Of a DNA stretch of 64,000 nt, positions 1-5,734 are shown piece after piece; within the stretch, counting starts at the first letter, position 1, and each line of letters begins with the position of its first letter. The DNA is from Escherichia coli (GTDB taxonomy: Bacteria > Pseudomonadota > Gammaproteobacteria > Enterobacterales > Enterobacteriaceae): the NCBI RefSeq assembly GCF_965641715.1, contig NZ_OZ282453.1; one strand, given 5' to 3'. The position numbers were made by a program, and so were the translations under genes. The notes below the pieces were generated by a model. That model ran no database searches and had not been told where the DNA came from. It saw only the letters and a program-made list of their open reading frames with translations.

Positions 1-596
1 TAGGGGTAACCTGTAGGGATGTACCACCCACCTTAAAATAAAGGGGTAAAATCGCTTAGAATGCGTTACAGAGCGTCTGAGAAGCCATATTCACAGATTT
101 TACTAAAACCTCAGACTTCTAAGTGGTCTTTTTAACAGGAGGGTTCTTTCTCATGTATCACCCTCTCTTCCCGCCAAGTAAGCTACACAGACCTAGAGAA
201 TATGCCTTCACAGCATCTATATCAGGTCAGATTTAGAGGTCTTGATAGAATCTTCAAAGGTACTTGACAGATAACTATGAAGTTGTTAGGAAGGGGTGTT
301 TAACGGGGGAAGAGATACGATATAACCCGAAGGGGAGAGTATCATCTTAACAGTGATTGTAAGAGTAAAACTGAAAAGATACTTAACAGAACTACCAAGA
401 GGGAGCGATAAGACCAGAGGTAGTGACCTGTTAAACAGTTCGTTTCAAAGCTCTTAAGAGTCTGTTAAGTAAGGTCATGTGAACAATCATATCATTTTGT
501 CAATGCTTTTGTCTTTGACCTAAATCAATAAAATGTATCGTTTGATGTGCTTTTAAACAAAATAGTTAAAAATCTTTTTAGAGGGGCGCTTCGCTT

Positions 597-1265
597 GTGT
601 CACATCCAATAATCCATATCGGTCGTTATCATGGTGGTTCTGATGACTGGCGTACACCGTATCGTCTATTTCATAACCTGCATCGTGAGTATAGCTTCAG
701 TCTAGATGGCGCTGCAACTGAGCATGACGCATTGTTGCCACGGTTCACCGATGATATAAACCGTCAATCATGGGTTGGTGAACGGGTCTTCGTTAACCCG
801 CCGTTTAGCATGGCTGAACAGTTCCTCGCAAAAGCCCCTGAAGCTGATGTGTGTGTATGTCTGGTTCCGCACAGGTCAAAGACAACTTACTGGCTTCGGT
901 GTGTATATACAAACCCCTTCCTGCATGAGATTCGAACATTACACCGAGCGGTTAAATACCTTCCACCAGCAGGAAAGAGAGGTGTTGTAGCGCGTTCACC
1001 ATTTGCAAGCTGTGTTTTGATATACAGGAACACACCCCGTAAACCGAAGGTTGAAATTACCCAGACAATCTATTGTGGCGACACAATGCTTTTACTTGCC
1101 GTGGTTAATAGGGGTGGTTTACGTGGAAGACCTCATATACACGATGCACAGACGCTTGACAGGTTGATTAAAATGCATGACCAAGGGCAATCCGTCAAGA
1201 GTATCGCAGAATCGCTAAGAATGCCTCTAAGCACCACTTACAGGATTGTTCAAAGGTTGAGCTAA
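597..1265 (+). CDS. Phage Dam-family DNA N6-adenine methyltransferase with C-terminal HTH-like segment
   Basis: GTG start with GAGGGG RBS about 11 nt upstream; WRTP...GERVFVNPPFS motif typical of phage Dam-type MTases; C-terminal QSVKSIAESLRMPLSTTYRIVQRL resembles an HTH. Confidence 0.6.
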   Translation: MSHPIIHIGRYHGGSDDWRTPYRLFHNLHREYSFSLDGAATEHDALLPRFTDDINRQSWVGERVFVNPPFSMAEQFLAKAPEADVCVCLVPHRSKTTYWLRCVYTNPFLHEIRTLHRAVKYLPPAGKRGVVARSPFASCVLIYRNTPRKPKVEITQTIYCGDTMLLLAVVNRGGLRGRPHIHDAQTLDRLIKMHDQGQSVKSIAESLRMPLSTTYRIVQRLS

Positions 1266-1300
1266 AATTCTCATATAGAGCACTGATTATGAGAATGTTA

Positions 1301-1333
1301 AAGAGGCGATTTCCCCTTTCTGGGGTTATTCGC
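1301..1333 (+). repeat. About 30-nt element containing CCCCTTTCTGGGG hairpin followed by T-run (copy 1); possible MTase terminator
   Basis: aagaggcgatttcccctttctggggttattcgcttttt; a near copy occurs at 1521..1552. Confidence 0.4.
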
Positions 1334-1520
1334 TTTTTACTGGAAGGGTTATTTTACAGAGGTTTTTCAAACCCCCTCAATAATAAAAAACGAGCAACAA
1401 ACGAAGAGCGAGAAATAAAATATTGAGACTGGTGAACGGGGTCTGTAAAGATTGTTTAAGAAGTCGGTTTAGGGATTGGTAGATGATTCGGATGAAGCAT
1501 CCTCATAACAATACCAATTA

Positions 1521-1552
1521 GAAGGTGGCTCTCCCTTTCTGGGGATATCGCC
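1521..1552 (+). repeat. About 30-nt element containing CCCTTTCTGGGG hairpin (copy 2)
   Basis: gaaggtggctctccctttctggggatatcgcc, similar to 1301..1333. Confidence 0.4.
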
Positions 1553-1575
1553 TTGTATCTTAGTGAGTCCAGGAA

Positions 1576-1760
1576 GTTCTCTGTGAAGGGACTTGTCAGT
1601 CCTTTATATTGGCTAATTACAACTTATTGAAAAATAAGCATTTTTAGAAATCACTGTTAAGGTTACAGAGTTCTCTGTGAAGAGACTCGTCAGCTCTCTA
1701 TATTGGCTAATTACAACTCATTGAAAAATAAGCATTTTTAGAAATTGCTGTCAGAGAGGT
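1576..1760. repeat. Tandem direct repeat, 2 copies of about 94 bp (about 90 percent identical)
   Basis: gttctctgtgaag(g/a)gact(t/c)gtcag...tattggctaattacaac...ttgaaaaataagcatttttagaaat occurs at 1576 and again at 1670. Confidence 0.8.
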
Positions 1761-1833
1761 GAGTACTTGATAGATACAGCTTTCCGGTTCTGTCAAGATA
1801 TTTTTTAATAGATAGCACAAAATGCTAAAGATA

Positions 1834-1863
1834 CCCCTATACCATCACGTACAGGGGGTTTTG
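1834..1863 (+). terminator. Hairpin plus T-run (intrinsic terminator-like), between repeat region and minus-strand small genes
   Basis: cccctataccatcacgtacaggggg followed by ttttg. Confidence 0.35.
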
Positions 1864-1871
1864 AAGGGAGT

Positions 1872-2060
1872 TTAACGGGGTTCTGTGTGGTTATCTGTTC
1901 TGGTCCTGTCCTTGAGGTCAAATGACCATTCACGACCAAACAATCTGAACACGATAAACACCCGAACGATGAAATAGCGGAGCAGAAGACCTGCAATCAG
2001 CCCAACACCTCCACCAGCCCATACATCAGGTGACCCCAGCTCAGGAGGGAGATTTACCAT
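1872..2060 (-). CDS. Small predicted membrane protein (62 aa), unknown function
   Basis: Internal ATG with AGGAA RBS; single hydrophobic helix WAGGGVGLIAGLLLRYFIVRVFIVF; start overlaps the stop of the upstream 34-aa ORF (TAATG). Confidence 0.35.
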   Translation of the reverse strand: MVNLPPELGSPDVWAGGGVGLIAGLLLRYFIVRVFIVFRLFGREWSFDLKDRTRTDNHTEPR

Positions 2061-2164
2061 TAAATTTCCTGTGTGCAATGCAATACCATGTGACATACAT
2101 AGTTGATTCGGTTAGTTGGGCTTGTACCAACCCCTATCGAATAAACCTCATAGCCACGCTTCAT
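2060..2164 (-). CDS. Small ORF (34 aa) translationally coupled to the 62-aa membrane protein
   Basis: ATG preceded by GAGGGGGAA RBS immediately downstream of a minus-strand promoter; MKRGYEVYSIGVGTSPTNRINYVCHMVLHCTQEI. Confidence 0.25.
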   Translation of the reverse strand: MKRGYEVYSIGVGTSPTNRINYVCHMVLHCTQEI

Positions 2165-2186
2165 ATTTCCCCCTCTCTCATAAACC

Positions 2187-2216
2187 ATTATACCACAAAT
2201 GTTACGAAATTGTTAA
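2187..2216 (-). promoter_or_regulatory. Sigma70-like promoter (TTAACA, 18 nt spacer, TATAAT) on minus strand
   Basis: Reverse complement reads ttaacaatttcgtaacatttgtggtataat; drives the 34-aa and 62-aa ORFs. Confidence 0.45.
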
Positions 2217-2222
2217 AAATAC

Positions 2223-2251
2223 TTGACATTAGTCTTTGAAAATGCTAGTAT
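2223..2251 (+). promoter_or_regulatory. Sigma70-like promoter (TTGACA, 17 nt spacer, TAGTAT) on plus strand
   Basis: ttgacattagtctttgaaaatgctagtat, about 50 nt upstream of the 2300 operon; back to back with the minus-strand promoter. Confidence 0.45.
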
Positions 2252-2299
2252 TGTATATAAGTTAACAGAGAATTAACAATTATAAGGACTAGCTTATGA

Positions 2300-2857
2300 A
2301 TGAACGACAGAGAATTTAGAGCGATGCTTCAGGCATCGAGACAACGTAACAGATACAACTCCTACAGCTACACAGACACCCCCACCAGCTACGAACTACC
2401 CAAGCTCACCAGAGCAGAACGCAAAGGCCTTGATGAATTAATTCGTAGCATTACGCCACGAGATAGATTTATGCCAACCAGAAAGAGCACGAAGAACACT
2501 ATTAAAAATTATCTGGCTAACTTTGACAGCTACGAACAATTACCAAGTAAGCTTGATGATGTAATTATCGGATTCTGTAGAAGTGAAGGTCACCCGAAAT
2601 ACAACAAAAAACTATTTTATCTTCTAAAGAATCTTGACGAAATTAACTCAGCCACCGTGACAAATCATCTTCAGCGTCAAGCAACCAGACTTAGCCATGA
2701 ATTACCAAGCGATAAATATTGCGCTTTGCTTGCTGTAATGTGCGCAAAGTTAATTGGTGTTGTTGAGCATCATATTGCCGTTGGAAATATTGAGCCAATG
2801 GAAAACGAGCAACCAGATTTCGAGTTTGACCCGTATTTAGTTACAGAGGAATTTTAA
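2300..2857 (+). CDS. Hypothetical phage protein (185 aa)
   Basis: ORF with AAGGA RBS; first gene of a coupled operon; no recognisable motif. Confidence 0.5.
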   Translation: MNDREFRAMLQASRQRNRYNSYSYTDTPTSYELPKLTRAERKGLDELIRSITPRDRFMPTRKSTKNTIKNYLANFDSYEQLPSKLDDVIIGFCRSEGHPKYNKKLFYLLKNLDEINSATVTNHLQRQATRLSHELPSDKYCALLAVMCAKLIGVVEHHIAVGNIEPMENEQPDFEFDPYLVTEEF

Positions 2858-3136
2858 ATGAAGAAACACACTTTGACCCGTATTTCAGAAGAAGCCTTTC
2901 ACGAGCTTACCCGAATTAAACAGACAACTAACCTCCCTCATCAAACTGTTATGCAGCTTGCAATTGCTAAAGAGGTTACTGAGTCGGATTTACTGAAATA
3001 TCCAGTCTCTAAAGGTCGTAAGCACATCCGAATTACTCAGGACGCTTTAGATACTTTGAAGGCACTTAACAACTTTAAAATTGATATCGCCCGACTATTG
3101 AGTATTAAGATTCACAAGTTAGCAATGGGGGTTTAA
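2858..3136 (+). CDS. Hypothetical protein (92 aa), possible ribbon-helix-helix DNA-binding fold
   Basis: ATG directly after upstream stop; N-terminal HTLTRISEEAFHELTRIKQ...QTVMQLAIAKEV fits a strand-helix-helix pattern (inference). Confidence 0.4.
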   Translation: MKKHTLTRISEEAFHELTRIKQTTNLPHQTVMQLAIAKEVTESDLLKYPVSKGRKHIRITQDALDTLKALNNFKIDIARLLSIKIHKLAMGV

Positions 3137-3351
3137 TGCTATGCGTTACCTTTGAATACCACACGGATAAAATGATTCGCTACATCTCCGACCTCCTGAT
3201 TGAAGGAAACGGATTCGGTGACATCCATAACTCAAAAGATATTTTCATTAAAGCCATTGGCCCAAATGAAGTACTGAAAACAGCAGTTAAACCGGAATGG
3301 TTTGAGCGTCACAAGATTGAATTAGGTTATTGGGGTGAGGAGGTTTTATGA
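3136..3351 (+). CDS. Hypothetical protein (71 aa)
   Basis: TAATG overlap with upstream gene; no recognisable motif. Confidence 0.4.
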   Translation: MLCVTFEYHTDKMIRYISDLLIEGNGFGDIHNSKDIFIKAIGPNEVLKTAVKPEWFERHKIELGYWGEEVL

Positions 3352-3635
3352 AACCTTGGCATGAAGATGTTAGACGATATTTTACAGAACACCTTATCTA
3401 TGATGAATCCAGTGATTCCCTGTGCTGGTCTGATGGAGAGTCAGTCACGATAAACACCGACGACTACGGCAACAAAACATTTAATATAGGCCGATATACT
3501 TTCTACGTGAAATATGTTGTCTGGTTCCTTTATCATGGCTATCAATCCAACAAGCAAATTATCCATCGAAATGGTAACAGAGCCGATACCAGACCAAAAA
3601 ATCTTATGCAAGTCCGAGACTTTAAGAGAAATTAG
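3348..3635 (+). CDS. Small HNH-family endonuclease (95 aa)
   Basis: ATGA overlap with upstream gene, GAGGAGG RBS; motif IHRNGNRADTRPKNL resembles the HNH_3-type H-x-NGN-x-D-x-R-x-x-NL signature. Confidence 0.55.
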   Translation: MKPWHEDVRRYFTEHLIYDESSDSLCWSDGESVTINTDDYGNKTFNIGRYTFYVKYVVWFLYHGYQSNKQIIHRNGNRADTRPKNLMQVRDFKRN

Positions 3636-3642
3636 AAAAACA

Positions 3643-3766
3643 GCTTCTCAGACGCTCTCAATCGCATTCTAACGCAAAAAACTATCTTATTTTAGGGTGG
3701 GTAATACCACTGTACAGGCTACCCCTGAAAAAGACTGTTTAGCTCGTTACAGAGCGATTGAGGAGG
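3643..3766. promoter_or_regulatory. Inverted pair of operator-like 10-bp-periodic motifs flanking about 75 bp upstream of the 3792 gene
   Basis: 3643..3672 (minus orientation) reads ttagaatgcgattgagagcgtctgagaagc; 3745..3766 reads cgttacagagcgattgaggagg; both are related to 56..85. Confidence 0.4.
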
Positions 3767-3791
3767 TCTGGTAAAAAGGAGATTTTAAGAA

Positions 3792-4121
3792 ATGAGAGAA
3801 TTAAACTTCCCACTACAGATTTTTATTGATACCGACACCGCCATGATGATTCAGGCTTTCACTGATGTAGGTGTTAGCATTGACTTTGATAAGTTGTTAG
3901 AGTTAATGACTGATAATGCGGAAAGCATCTCTGACTTTATTCAGTCGGTGGAGTTTAACGAGCCTCGAATGATGCTACCAATTAAAGACAGCAACATGAA
4001 AAGATTGGTTATCGAGCAAACGAACAAATTCAGCGTTAGCCCTGAAAAATATCTCAAGGCGGCTATAGCAATTTTGTACGCTGACAATATTTTGGTGACG
4101 GATTCGAAGGTGGTGCATTAA
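3792..4121 (+). CDS. Hypothetical acidic protein (109 aa)
   Basis: AAGGAG RBS; no recognisable motif. Confidence 0.5.
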   Translation: MRELNFPLQIFIDTDTAMMIQAFTDVGVSIDFDKLLELMTDNAESISDFIQSVEFNEPRMMLPIKDSNMKRLVIEQTNKFSVSPEKYLKAAIAILYADNILVTDSKVVH

Positions 4122-4186
4122 TGGAATTGGTGATTATCTGTTTTGTATTGATTGGTATGATTGCAGGTGCATCTATTAAAGTATAA
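4121..4186 (+). CDS. Tiny hydrophobic peptide (21 aa, MELVIICFVLIGMIAGASIKV), translationally coupled
   Basis: ATG overlaps TAA of upstream gene (TAATG); entirely hydrophobic single-helix peptide. Confidence 0.25.
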   Translation: MELVIICFVLIGMIAGASIKV

Positions 4187-4211
4187 ATGTTACCAATCTG
4201 TTAAAAATCTG

Positions 4212-4240
4212 TTGACAAATAACCTTGAGCATGACATAAT
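4212..4240 (+). promoter_or_regulatory. Near-consensus sigma70 promoter (TTGACA, 17 nt spacer, CATAAT)
   Basis: ttgacaaataaccttgagcatgacataat. Confidence 0.55.
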
Positions 4241-4246
4241 TGTATA

Positions 4247-4503
4247 TATATGAGGATAGTCTTCTATCCGAAGTCTATAGGGAGAGCAATTCTCCTTGAA
4301 TTAAAATATTAATCATCTCTACATCAATGATAACTATATTCTGAGTTGGTGAGGTATGTTCTATACCGAACATTCTGAAAGGTGCAATGCTTTTCGTCAT
4401 GGCCTTTCAGTTTAGTCTGAGAGGCTATCTCAAAAAGTGCTTAATCATTCATTCATTGAATCCTTTACAGCTTTGCCCTAATCATGAGTTAGGGCGTTTC
4501 TTT
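4247..4503 (+). ncRNA. Candidate small RNA or structured leader (about 255 nt) from promoter to first intrinsic terminator
   Basis: No ORF of 60 aa or more in about 460 nt; several stable hairpins (4254..4269, 4356..4373); ends at terminator 4475..4503. Confidence 0.3.
4475..4503 (+). terminator. Intrinsic terminator (7-bp GC-containing stem plus T-run)
   Basis: gccctaatcatgagttagggc then gtttcttt. Confidence 0.5.
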
Positions 4504-4574
4504 AAGAGTTTTAAGCAGAGCTTTTAAAGAAAGTTTTTCCTGAAACTTCGTTAACGTTATAAAGCAAACCTTCA

Positions 4575-4610
4575 AAGCCCTTCACAGATTCAATGTTTAG
4601 GGCTTTTCTT
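4575..4610 (+). terminator. Second hairpin plus T-run (terminator-like)
   Basis: aagcccttcacagattcaatgtttagggctt then ttctt. Confidence 0.4.
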
Positions 4611-4707
4611 AATAGAGCATCTTTAATAAATCGTTAAGTCATCTTCTAAGTGTATTGGCGTTGAAGGTGCTCTGTTAAGAAATAAACCACACTTAGAGGA
4701 AGTTATA

Positions 4708-5418
4708 ATGACAAACGATTTATATATTAACGGTAAAAAGGTTGATAGCTTCGGTGACTGGTCGCCACAGACTGAACATCCAGCTATCACTATTCAGCGC
4801 AAAGAACACGATGAAAGAATTGCACTTGAGCAAGAAATCCGAATGTCACCAAAGGTAATTTCCTTTGTGGCTCCTGAGCCTCAAGATATGCCGGATATTT
4901 GCAAAACTGAAGCATTGCTTGAGCTTGAAAAGAAATTTTACCCAGCTTTAAAAGCACAGCGTCTTAAACTAGATGACGCTTACAGTAAAGTTACCCTGAT
5001 GCAATCAGCTATTGAGCCATCAGAATTTGAGATTCAGGATGAATTGTCACAGAAACCATTTGTCTATTACCAATATGAAGACAATGATGGTTTTGGTACT
5101 TTTCCTGAGAATATCCCAGACGTGATTAATAATCCGATGGATGGATATCGAATTGTGAAGATGGTTAAGGCATCAAGAGGTGCTGGTCAGTTTATTTACA
5201 TGACTAATAAGAGCGATGAAGAACTCGCTGAACTTGCTAGACAGAACATCTTGGCATCACGTAACAAGCAGCTTGATAATGTTAAGTTGTATCTCTCAAG
5301 AGAGCTTCAGGCTATGAAAGACCTTGTGAAAGAATATGAAGATGCTAAGAAGATTGCTATGCAAGCCGATATTGAGCAGTTAGTGAAGATTTCTAGCAAA
5401 TATGCAAAGGCTATTTAA
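4708..5418 (+). CDS. Hypothetical phage protein (236 aa), charged with coiled-coil-like C-terminus
   Basis: GAGGAAG RBS; first gene of a co-directional module ending at 8794. Confidence 0.5.
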   Translation: MTNDLYINGKKVDSFGDWSPQTEHPAITIQRKEHDERIALEQEIRMSPKVISFVAPEPQDMPDICKTEALLELEKKFYPALKAQRLKLDDAYSKVTLMQSAIEPSEFEIQDELSQKPFVYYQYEDNDGFGTFPENIPDVINNPMDGYRIVKMVKASRGAGQFIYMTNKSDEELAELARQNILASRNKQLDNVKLYLSRELQAMKDLVKEYEDAKKIAMQADIEQLVKISSKYAKAI

Positions 5419-5437
5419 TTATGATGTGAGGTGAAGA

Positions 5438-5653
5438 ATGATTGATTTAACTGAACGCTATGAAGTTATTAAGTCTGTTTGTGAGAACTTAAAGCTTCAG
5501 ACTAAACCAAAGCTACGAATTAAAAATCAGCATCAAGTTATCACCTCACACAAACCAAAGGTTAGAAGGATTCCTTCATGGTGTATTGACCGTGTTCCTG
5601 CTGATGCTCAATTAATTGGTGAGTCTGGTTCTTACACTTATATCCTTCATTAA
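5438..5653 (+). CDS. Hypothetical phage protein (71 aa)
   Basis: GAGGTGAAG RBS; immediately upstream of the tape-measure-like gene. Confidence 0.45.
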   Translation: MIDLTERYEVIKSVCENLKLQTKPKLRIKNQHQVITSHKPKVRRIPSWCIDRVPADAQLIGESGSYTYILH

Positions 5654-5734
5654 AAATTACAAAGGGGAGAGATTAGCCTTAATTGGTTAGTCTTTCCCTT
5701 TTTCGTATATGAACACTTAAGAGGTGAAACATGA

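Follow-up and report, generated by a model that had tools for sequence, protein, structure and literature searches.

Among satellites of strictly virulent phages, in-depth knowledge is limited to one pair, the PLEs of Vibrio cholerae and their helper ICP1. The PLE nuclease effector is NixI, and the small membrane protein of these elements is LidI. PLEs encode a large serine recombinase and build into chimeric tails their own tape measure protein (TMP), tail chaperone and, in some cases, baseplate hub, which are 19–41% identical to ICP1 proteins (PMC11838301). In E. coli, Barth et al. (2023) described putative satellites of phi92-like phages (Inny, Muut, Mt1B1_P17) predicted to carry a TMP and a baseplate gene (PMC10055350). 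Here we report on a chromosomal island of ~11.6 kb in E. coli, found in a 64,000-nucleotide (nt) stretch of contig NZ_OZ282453.1 (the window; the leftmost ~1 kb of the island precedes window position 1), and in particular on its operon of six genes at 2300–4186. From sequence comparisons we judge the chances to be about even that in this operon a PLE-like satellite of FelixO1-like phages has its early module, for replication, regulation and nuclease activity. A fuller claim, advanced tentatively and rated somewhat short of even, is that the island would represent an undescribed family of PLE-like satellites on virulent FelixO1-like phages, found in Salmonella as well as in about a tenth of E. 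coli genomes, with the operon as a replication and regulatory module of a new type (a p185 initiator with a novel fold, small DNA-binding proteins, a minimal HNH enzyme and a membrane micro-peptide) beside a highly conserved non-coding RNA (ncRNA) and a chimeric-tail module.

Both the PLEs and the island are compact chromosomal islands with a large serine recombinase, tied to a strictly virulent myovirus (ICP1 and Felixounavirus, respectively) and devoid of capsid or terminase genes, and both encode a diverged TMP of their own as well as a baseplate protein, akin to the products of adjacent helper genes. PLEs likewise have a swappable replication-initiator module (PMC11838301, PMC10055350). 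However, the island has no RepA_N protein, neither its p185 nor the Rep of a sister island qualifying as a RepA_N initiator; it measures ~11.6 kb as against ~18 kb, and it occupies wrbA, yecE or yciI–tonB instead of integron repeats. The helper lineage would also be a different one, and the island is known from sequence alone. As the PLE host and helper are Vibrio cholerae and ICP1, whereas the hosts here are E. coli and Salmonella, the island can be at most an analogous family. With the satellites of Barth et al. it has in common the E. coli host, a TMP and a baseplate component in the absence of most tail genes, and modular swapping of replication initiators; however, those satellites have major capsid and decoration genes, mostly tyrosine integrases beside tRNAs, and RepA_N, none of which our scans found in the island, and they are tied to Justusliebigvirus, whereas the tail genes of the island are Felixounavirus-like. 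None of four genome accessions that carry the island family appeared in the portion of the supplementary text of PMC10055350 that was available. PICI, cf-PICI and P4-like elements are, like the island, small integrative elements of E. coli and helper-dependent (for the island, this being our reading); these elements have temperate helpers, tyrosine integrases, AlpA, Pri-Rep, and capsid/terS or Psu/Sid/Delta, none of which was detected in scans of the island. PHROG, PADLOC and NCBIfam scans further found no capsid, portal, terminase, sheath or tube genes in the island; for all protein scans ORFs (open reading frames) were picked at a cut-off of 90 amino acids (aa), with smaller ones included within 1–8000. 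The searchable literature, the coverage of which is incomplete, yielded no description of the island family, and an earlier description elsewhere is possible.

The operon consists of the following genes:

2300–2857, + strand: p185, 185 aa, the first gene of the operon
2858–3136, + strand: p92, 92 aa, basic (pI 10)
3136–3351, + strand: p71, 71 aa, a small protein without a family match
3348–3635, + strand: HNH gene, 95 aa, a minimal HNH_3 endonuclease by profile
3792–4121, + strand: p109, 109 aa, acidic (pI 4.5)
4121–4186, + strand: micro-ORF, a 21-aa hydrophobic peptide with a single span (GRAVY 2.2)

An earlier sequence-only reading of this DNA had proposed these six ORFs, and an ORF listing together with direct reading of the sequence places all of them exactly where it had put them. 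It had also described the first four genes as joined by overlapping stop and start codons, which is right for the later junctions, i.e., TAATG between p92 and p71 (1-nt overlap) and ATGA between p71 and the HNH gene (4-nt overlap), but not for p185 and p92, which abut (TAAATG). The coupling it saw of an acidic 109-aa protein to a hydrophobic 21-aa peptide is borne out by the pI of 4.5 and a second TAATG junction (1-nt overlap), and what it called an inverted-repeat region is one long imperfect hairpin at 3640–3785 (−49.4 kcal/mol; z = −4.9 against 200 shuffles) in the 156-nt gap between the HNH gene and p109. In other islands the hairpins in the same gap are divergent in sequence yet long (z = −2.2 and −3.3). 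By megablast, 439 of 5426 complete E. coli genomes contain the operon stretch, in every case on the chromosome, and RefSeq annotates the five larger genes, as hypothetical proteins and an "HNH endonuclease"; the operon is real and no accidental set of ORFs. Its proteins have no homologs in phage Andreotti or among 50,697 phage records, and are thus specific to the island.

The same gene order occurs at wrbA, in yecE (L007), between yciI and tonB (L009), and at wrbA in Salmonella enterica, the recombinase of the yciI–tonB island being only 28% identical. Some part of the island is matched in 558 of the 5426 E. coli genomes, and 8–10% of complete genomes carry the architecture. The sister island between yciI and tonB encodes a 322-aa winged helix-turn-helix Rep (best E-value to a PHROG annotated "replication initiation", 1.7e-7; weak match to Pfam HTH_36), with three to four tandem 23-nt iterons (ACCCAACCAAAAATTGGTTACCT; L009 6867–6935) inside the Rep gene, an arrangement like that of lambda O. 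The next gene encodes 96 aa with an HNH_3-like motif (HQLRLKDGDPNNL), read by eye and with no profile match, and is followed by a homolog to p92 (96 aa, 37% identity), a 141-aa protein, a homolog to p109 (75% identity) and the micro-ORF. Homologs to this alternative module were found in Citrobacter too. Judged by these alignments, p92, p109 and the peptide are the family-wide core, and p185, the HNH gene and the ~1 kb upstream with its repeats form an alternative cassette in what looks like the replicon position. Because the p185/HNH half is replaced by a Rep gene plus iterons in the sister island, we read the operon as a replication/regulation module; the suggestion in the sequence-only reading that it is accessory cargo gives way to that of a conserved front-end module with an exchangeable first half. 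The repeats in question are:

1575–1751, no strand assigned: two tandem 83-nt repeats, 90% identical and spaced 94 nt, each with an internal hairpin

They lie in a ~1-kb non-coding stretch upstream of the operon and are a candidate origin or binding array for the p185-type module.

p185 belongs to a narrow family, with homologs from E. coli, Shigella, Salmonella, E. albertii and E. fergusonii. Its C-terminal tail is acidic and aromatic (DFEFDPYLVTEEF; motif DFEFDPY), and the L009 Rep also ends in an acidic aromatic motif (DPFDD...DDDDFSF); both would be reminiscent of tails that recruit partners. A distant homolog to p185 is the first gene of a long operon on a phage-like contig, with an HNH gene directly after it. 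Conserved throughout the family, p92 gave weak DndE-like matches (NCBIfam, E-value 1.3e-3; Pfam, 0.26), and profile comparisons with the ribbon-helix-helix proteins Arc, CopG and Mnt (hhalign) and with PDB sequences were negative; we regard it as a putative DNA-binding regulator, with the ribbon-helix-helix fold suggested in the sequence-only reading as a possible one. p71 is 97% identical in the yecE island and has no family match in PHROGs, PADLOC or NCBIfam. The 95-aa protein was named as the one recognisable nuclease of the operon, and it does match Pfam HNH_3 (PF13392; 2.6e-8, residues 53–89) as well as phrog_99 (2.7e-8) and several PHROG HNH families, with the H..N..N catalytic motif kept and IIHRNGNRADTRPKNL present; it is the only operon protein that could be so recognised. 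While it has the domain and the intact catalytic motif in common with HNH_3 endonucleases, which are typically free-standing phage homing enzymes, it is minimal, lacks a NUMOD or AP2 domain, and sits inside a coupled operon instead of being a free-standing insertion. It has no close relative in the 50,697 phage records, the best match being to a Sulfitobacter phage (2e-4). The best-conserved operon protein across the family is p109 (73–94% identity), for which no homolog was found in Pfam, PHROG, PDB or the phage records, and an hhalign comparison with ribbon-helix-helix proteins was negative. Its AlphaFold2 (AF2) model, so poor (pLDDT 55) that a fold search was dropped, has a secondary structure of beta-alpha-alpha twice.

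The micro-peptide has no RefSeq annotation; its hydrophobic ORF is nevertheless kept, with the TAATG junction unchanged, in each of the 14 related loci aligned, and we consider it real. It occurs as two hydrophobic alleles, one of 21 aa (MELVIICFVLIGMIAGASIKV) and one of 25 aa (e.g., MGLIIAWTLLGLFVGCWVGNTVNKN), which differ by synonymous and conservative changes. A peptide this short, fully hydrophobic and conserved, next to the acidic p109, with the two forming the most conserved part of the operon, might suggest a toxin–antitoxin (TA) or addiction pair in which a membrane-toxic peptide and an acidic antidote stabilise the island, the rest of the operon being unrelated. However, neither partner has homology to TA families in NCBIfam, Pfam or PADLOC. 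The hydrophobic-peptide toxins hok, ldr, tisB and ibs are under antisense-RNA control, and a type I TA peptide has its own mRNA and an antisense RNA, whereas the island peptide has no promoter of its own and relies on translational coupling to p109 through TAATG in all loci. A promoter scan found no minus-strand promoter at the peptide locus, and one weak antisense candidate (TTAACA-18-TTTAAT) lacks conservation in the second allele. The TA proposal of the sequence-only reading thus found no specific support, and we regard such a pair as quite improbable.

The link to Felixounavirus comes from the right half of the island, which contains the following genes:

4708–5653, + strand: p236 and p71b, 236 and 71 aa (p236 at 4708–5418)
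5735–7864, + strand: TMP, 709 aa (phrog_4036, 1.7e-82; Pfam TMP_3 in the Salmonella copy)
8000–8794, + strand: baseplate/Dit-like protein, 264 aa
8814–10457, − strand: large serine recombinase, the island integrase, 547 aa (phrog_95, 2.3e-78; Resolvase and Recombinase Pfam domains in the Salmonella copy)

The Felixounavirus phages, which are FelixO1-like myoviruses of ~86 kb, are strictly lytic, lack an integrase and have Escherichia, Salmonella, Shigella and Citrobacter as hosts. The 264-aa baseplate protein is ~75% identical to a Felixounavirus protein encoded directly downstream of the TMP gene in ~250 genomes, and over 519 nt (8036–8554) its gene has 92% nucleotide identity to that of phage Andreotti, the homology between island and phage spanning both gene boundaries. 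The best database matches to the TMP overall are Felixounavirus TMPs (~31% identity), with its ends closer to the phage protein: identity is 48% over the first 81 aa, and 12 residues match among the last 17. Based on the nucleotide match, one tail gene evidently carries recent exchange with phage, and the baseplate alleles of other islands, which are 92%, 74% or 71% identical to Andreotti, form a mosaic pattern that argues for repeated exchange. p236 and p71b occupy the position where a phage would have tail assembly chaperones; the RefSeq name "transposase" for the homolog to p236 (WP_106485560.1) had no support in PHROGs, NCBIfam, PADLOC or PDB sequences. As a separate observation, insertion sequence (IS) elements interrupt the TMP gene in several genomes, possibly a sign that expressing the TMP has a cost, or that many copies are in decay.

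The promoters and the leader of the two rightward operons are:

2223–2251, + strand: promoter P1, near-consensus sigma-70 (TTGACA-17-TAGTAT)
4212–4240, + strand: promoter P2 (TTGACA-17-CATAAT)
4241–4707, + strand: non-coding leader, ~450 nt, 3' of P2, with a terminator-like hairpin at 4474–4496

P1 and P2 are the two best sigma-70 matches of the island, and the sequences upstream of them are related. Four islands, from two integration sites and two genera, have an identical P1 core, and P2 is near-invariant across 14 loci. Both are near-consensus promoters and drive the two rightward operons of the island, P1 that of p185, p92, p71, the HNH gene, the hairpin, p109 and the transmembrane peptide, and P2 that of the leader, p236, p71b, the TMP and the baseplate protein. 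The idea that P1 and P2 are copies of Felixounavirus promoters was rejected, as the strong promoters of the phage lack the doubled TGTTA element; the TGTTAA upstream of P1 is better explained as the −35 element of a divergent leftward promoter, which argues against promoter mimicry. The leader is more conserved than the flanking protein genes, also in the most divergent island and in Salmonella, and its core (4377–4590) is almost invariant even where identity of the p236 homolog falls to 25%. The leader has matches in 378 E. coli genomes, in 193 of them at ≥95% identity, and is annotated in none. With a fold z-score of −3.75 and no Rfam match, it is a candidate ncRNA, i.e., a small RNA or attenuator that would control the tail operon. 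Separately, we noted that the 17 nt at 4513–4529 in the leader match perfectly, in antisense, a segment in the 3' part of the Andreotti vWFA gene (L004 557–573), where ~0.005 such matches are expected; one or two bases differ in the other aligned islands, and the match may be due to chance.

Could the island be the decayed remnant of a temperate phage not yet known, with the operon left over from its early genes and the HNH gene as a selfish homing endonuclease that serves neither host nor element? The RefSeq names are prophage-like, IS elements have inserted in the TMP gene in several genomes, an AP2-HNH homing-type endonuclease replaces the methyltransferase at the left end of the yecE variant, and the distant p185 homolog lies beside an HNH gene where a phage-like contig begins. 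However, the same compact gene set is kept in two genera and, beside recombinases that differ, at three integration sites, and none of the 558 matching genomes showed a longer, complete version. In addition, the only phage relatives of the tail genes are in the strictly virulent Felixounavirus, which have no integrase, and the promoters, leader and micro-ORF are strongly constrained. We therefore think a remnant of this kind very unlikely.

The non-coding DNA provides a further link between the island and the phage. The region matched in the phage is a 1.65-kb non-coding repeat region between convergent transcription units (80.7–82.4 kb in Andreotti). Island non-coding DNA and this region have 106 10-mers in common (range 75–106) as against 32 ± 11 (23–32) for dinucleotide shuffles, while segments of equal length elsewhere in the phage have at most 58 in common with the island. 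TGTTAA/TTAACA occurs 19 times per kb in the phage repeat region as against ~0.8 per 500 nt elsewhere in the phage, and is enriched at the left end of the island. TTAACAGAGAATTAACAA, downstream of P1 (2262–2279), agrees in 17 of its 18 positions with a site in this phage region. Two further sites are:

8793–8812, no strand assigned: perfect 20-nt palindromic site GATTGGTAACAATACCAATT, with 0 matches in 100 shuffles
~1470–1520, no strand assigned: split copy of the palindromic site, TAGGGATTGGTAACAATACCAATTA, broken by a 24-nt hairpin-like insert and intact in strain T2

The palindromic site is present once in the phage, inside the non-coding repeat region (Andreotti ~81.6 kb; L005 9620–9639), and its position varies among islands (e.g., L001 14231–14246). 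Felixounavirus genomes have been reported to have direct terminal repeats (PMC11737134).

These matches bear on the proposal that the island is a non-transmissible anti-phage defence island, in which the diverged TMP and baseplate protein serve as decoys and poison the assembly of Felixounavirus tails, the HNH enzyme and the peptide are abortive-infection effectors, and spread is by the recombinase and ordinary gene transfer. Partial and diverged tail genes, the presence of an HNH nuclease and a hydrophobic peptide, and the wide distribution in E. coli agree with it, and defence that targets tails has a precedent in Rta of PLE11 (PMC11838301). On the other hand, no PADLOC-DB v2 model matches any operon protein (among all island proteins only the methyltransferase was matched, as "orphan MTase"), the Rep-plus-iteron replicon of the sister island would be needless for a static defence locus, and the long non-coding arm has a vocabulary in common with the phage. 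We consider a pure defence island unlikely, if less so than a remnant or a TA pair; the defence and satellite readings overlap, since satellites also defend. The sequence-only reading had placed the operon among defence, anti-defence or TA cargo. It was right that this is a mobile element of the kind involved in conflict with phages, but the operon is neither a known defence system nor a demonstrable TA pair, and the decisive context lay beyond what that reading covered, in the serine recombinase, the Felixounavirus-derived tail genes and the start of the element before the window.

If the island is a PLE-like satellite, phage infection would lead to its derepression, excision and replication. 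p185 might act as initiator or replisome recruiter, possibly at the upstream 83-nt repeats, and p92, perhaps with p109, would be a DNA-binding regulator of P1 and P2. The HNH enzyme may nick or cut island DNA at the start of replication or in its processing, or nick or cut helper DNA as interference in the manner of NixI. Through its tail operon the island would put a TMP and hub of its own into chimeric tails, the envelope might be the target of the membrane peptide, in lysis timing or exclusion, and packaging into helper capsids is assumed.

Several points weigh against this interpretation. Induction, excision, replication and packaging are all steps that we infer. p185 has no detectable similarity to any replication protein in Pfam, NCBIfam or the replication PHROGs, its AF2 model matches no solved fold, and its occupancy of the Rep slot is positional evidence and no proof that it is an initiator. 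P1 and P2 resemble constitutive host promoters of high strength, and the analysis identified no repressor. With no helper-type pac site or terminal repeat mapped, the likeness of the cis elements could reflect common regulators or common ancestry. The matches in a virome collection (IMG/VR) are prophage-style predictions in bacterial genomes and not free particles, and we rejected them as evidence of packaging, on which such regions are uninformative. Finally, IS elements (IS2, IS100 and ISKpn26) interrupt the island TMP in several genomes (e.g., L007 17622–18850), which suggests that many copies are decaying or selected against.

Should the satellite interpretation be correct, a system comparable to PLE and ICP1 would exist in the best genetic model organisms, E. 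coli and Salmonella, with a helper among the Felix O1-type phages, a classic in phage typing and frequent components of therapeutic and biocontrol cocktails. Satellite induction, hijacking of replication, chimeric tail assembly and phage interference would then be directly testable, the five operon proteins and the micro-peptide, which are without known relatives, being obvious candidates for replication and interference functions, and the island could explain strain-level resistance to Felix O1-type phages in ~8–10% of E. coli.

The boundaries of the island were established by comparison with K-12 and with strain T2, the counterpart of which lies between ymdF and wrbA and ends in a 547-aa large serine recombinase adjoining wrbA. 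The insertion is inside the 5' end of wrbA at about codon 7, with a precise attB. The uninterrupted K-12 site reads ...GTTCTGGTGCTTTATTATTCC..., the left junction of strain T2 ...GTTCTGGTGCTTT/TACATAG... and the right junction of the window ...ATACTAGTGCTTT/ATTATTCC... (junctions marked by slashes), so that attL falls ~1 kb to the left of window position 1 and the attR crossover at GTGCTTT. A direct repeat at 118–141 and 10476–10499 was ruled out as an att pair, as the crossover lies at this GTGCTTT within wrbA and the window opens when the island has already begun. GC content is ~40% over the first 10.5 kb of the window and 51% over the remainder; the island itself has 40.1%, which matches the 39.2% of the phage, and the host 51.0%. 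At its right end the island supplies a new start for wrbA:

10509–10532, + strand: island-supplied 5' end of wrbA, with a new ribosome-binding site and the N-terminus MSVKARIL... in place of MAKVLVLYY...

wrbA probably stays functional, under upstream sequence derived from the island. The wrbA junction regions compared were window 10509–10532, L001 11740–11770 and L012 1486–1520.

The remaining features are at the left end:

1–596, no strand assigned: right part of the non-coding left arm, which is ~1.6 kb in all
597–1265, + strand: Dam-like N6-adenine methyltransferase with a C-terminal helix-turn-helix, 222 aa (phrog_111, 2.2e-24; PADLOC orphan MTase, 7e-9; TIGR01712)
1872–2096, − strand: small membrane-protein gene, 62–74 aa with one hydrophobic segment (RefSeq homolog WP_069914444.1)

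The left arm is rich in TTAACAG/CTGTTAA, CTATACAG and GCGTTACAGAGCG motifs, and an Rfam scan of the island gave no match. The methyltransferase gene occupies the variable left-end slot, i.e., the one taken by the AP2-HNH endonuclease gene in yecE. The small membrane protein had no family match in PHROGs or PADLOC; its leftward gene has a divergent promoter (TTAACA-18-TATAAT, 2216–2187) and a terminator-like hairpin (1857–1834), and is conserved in strain T2.

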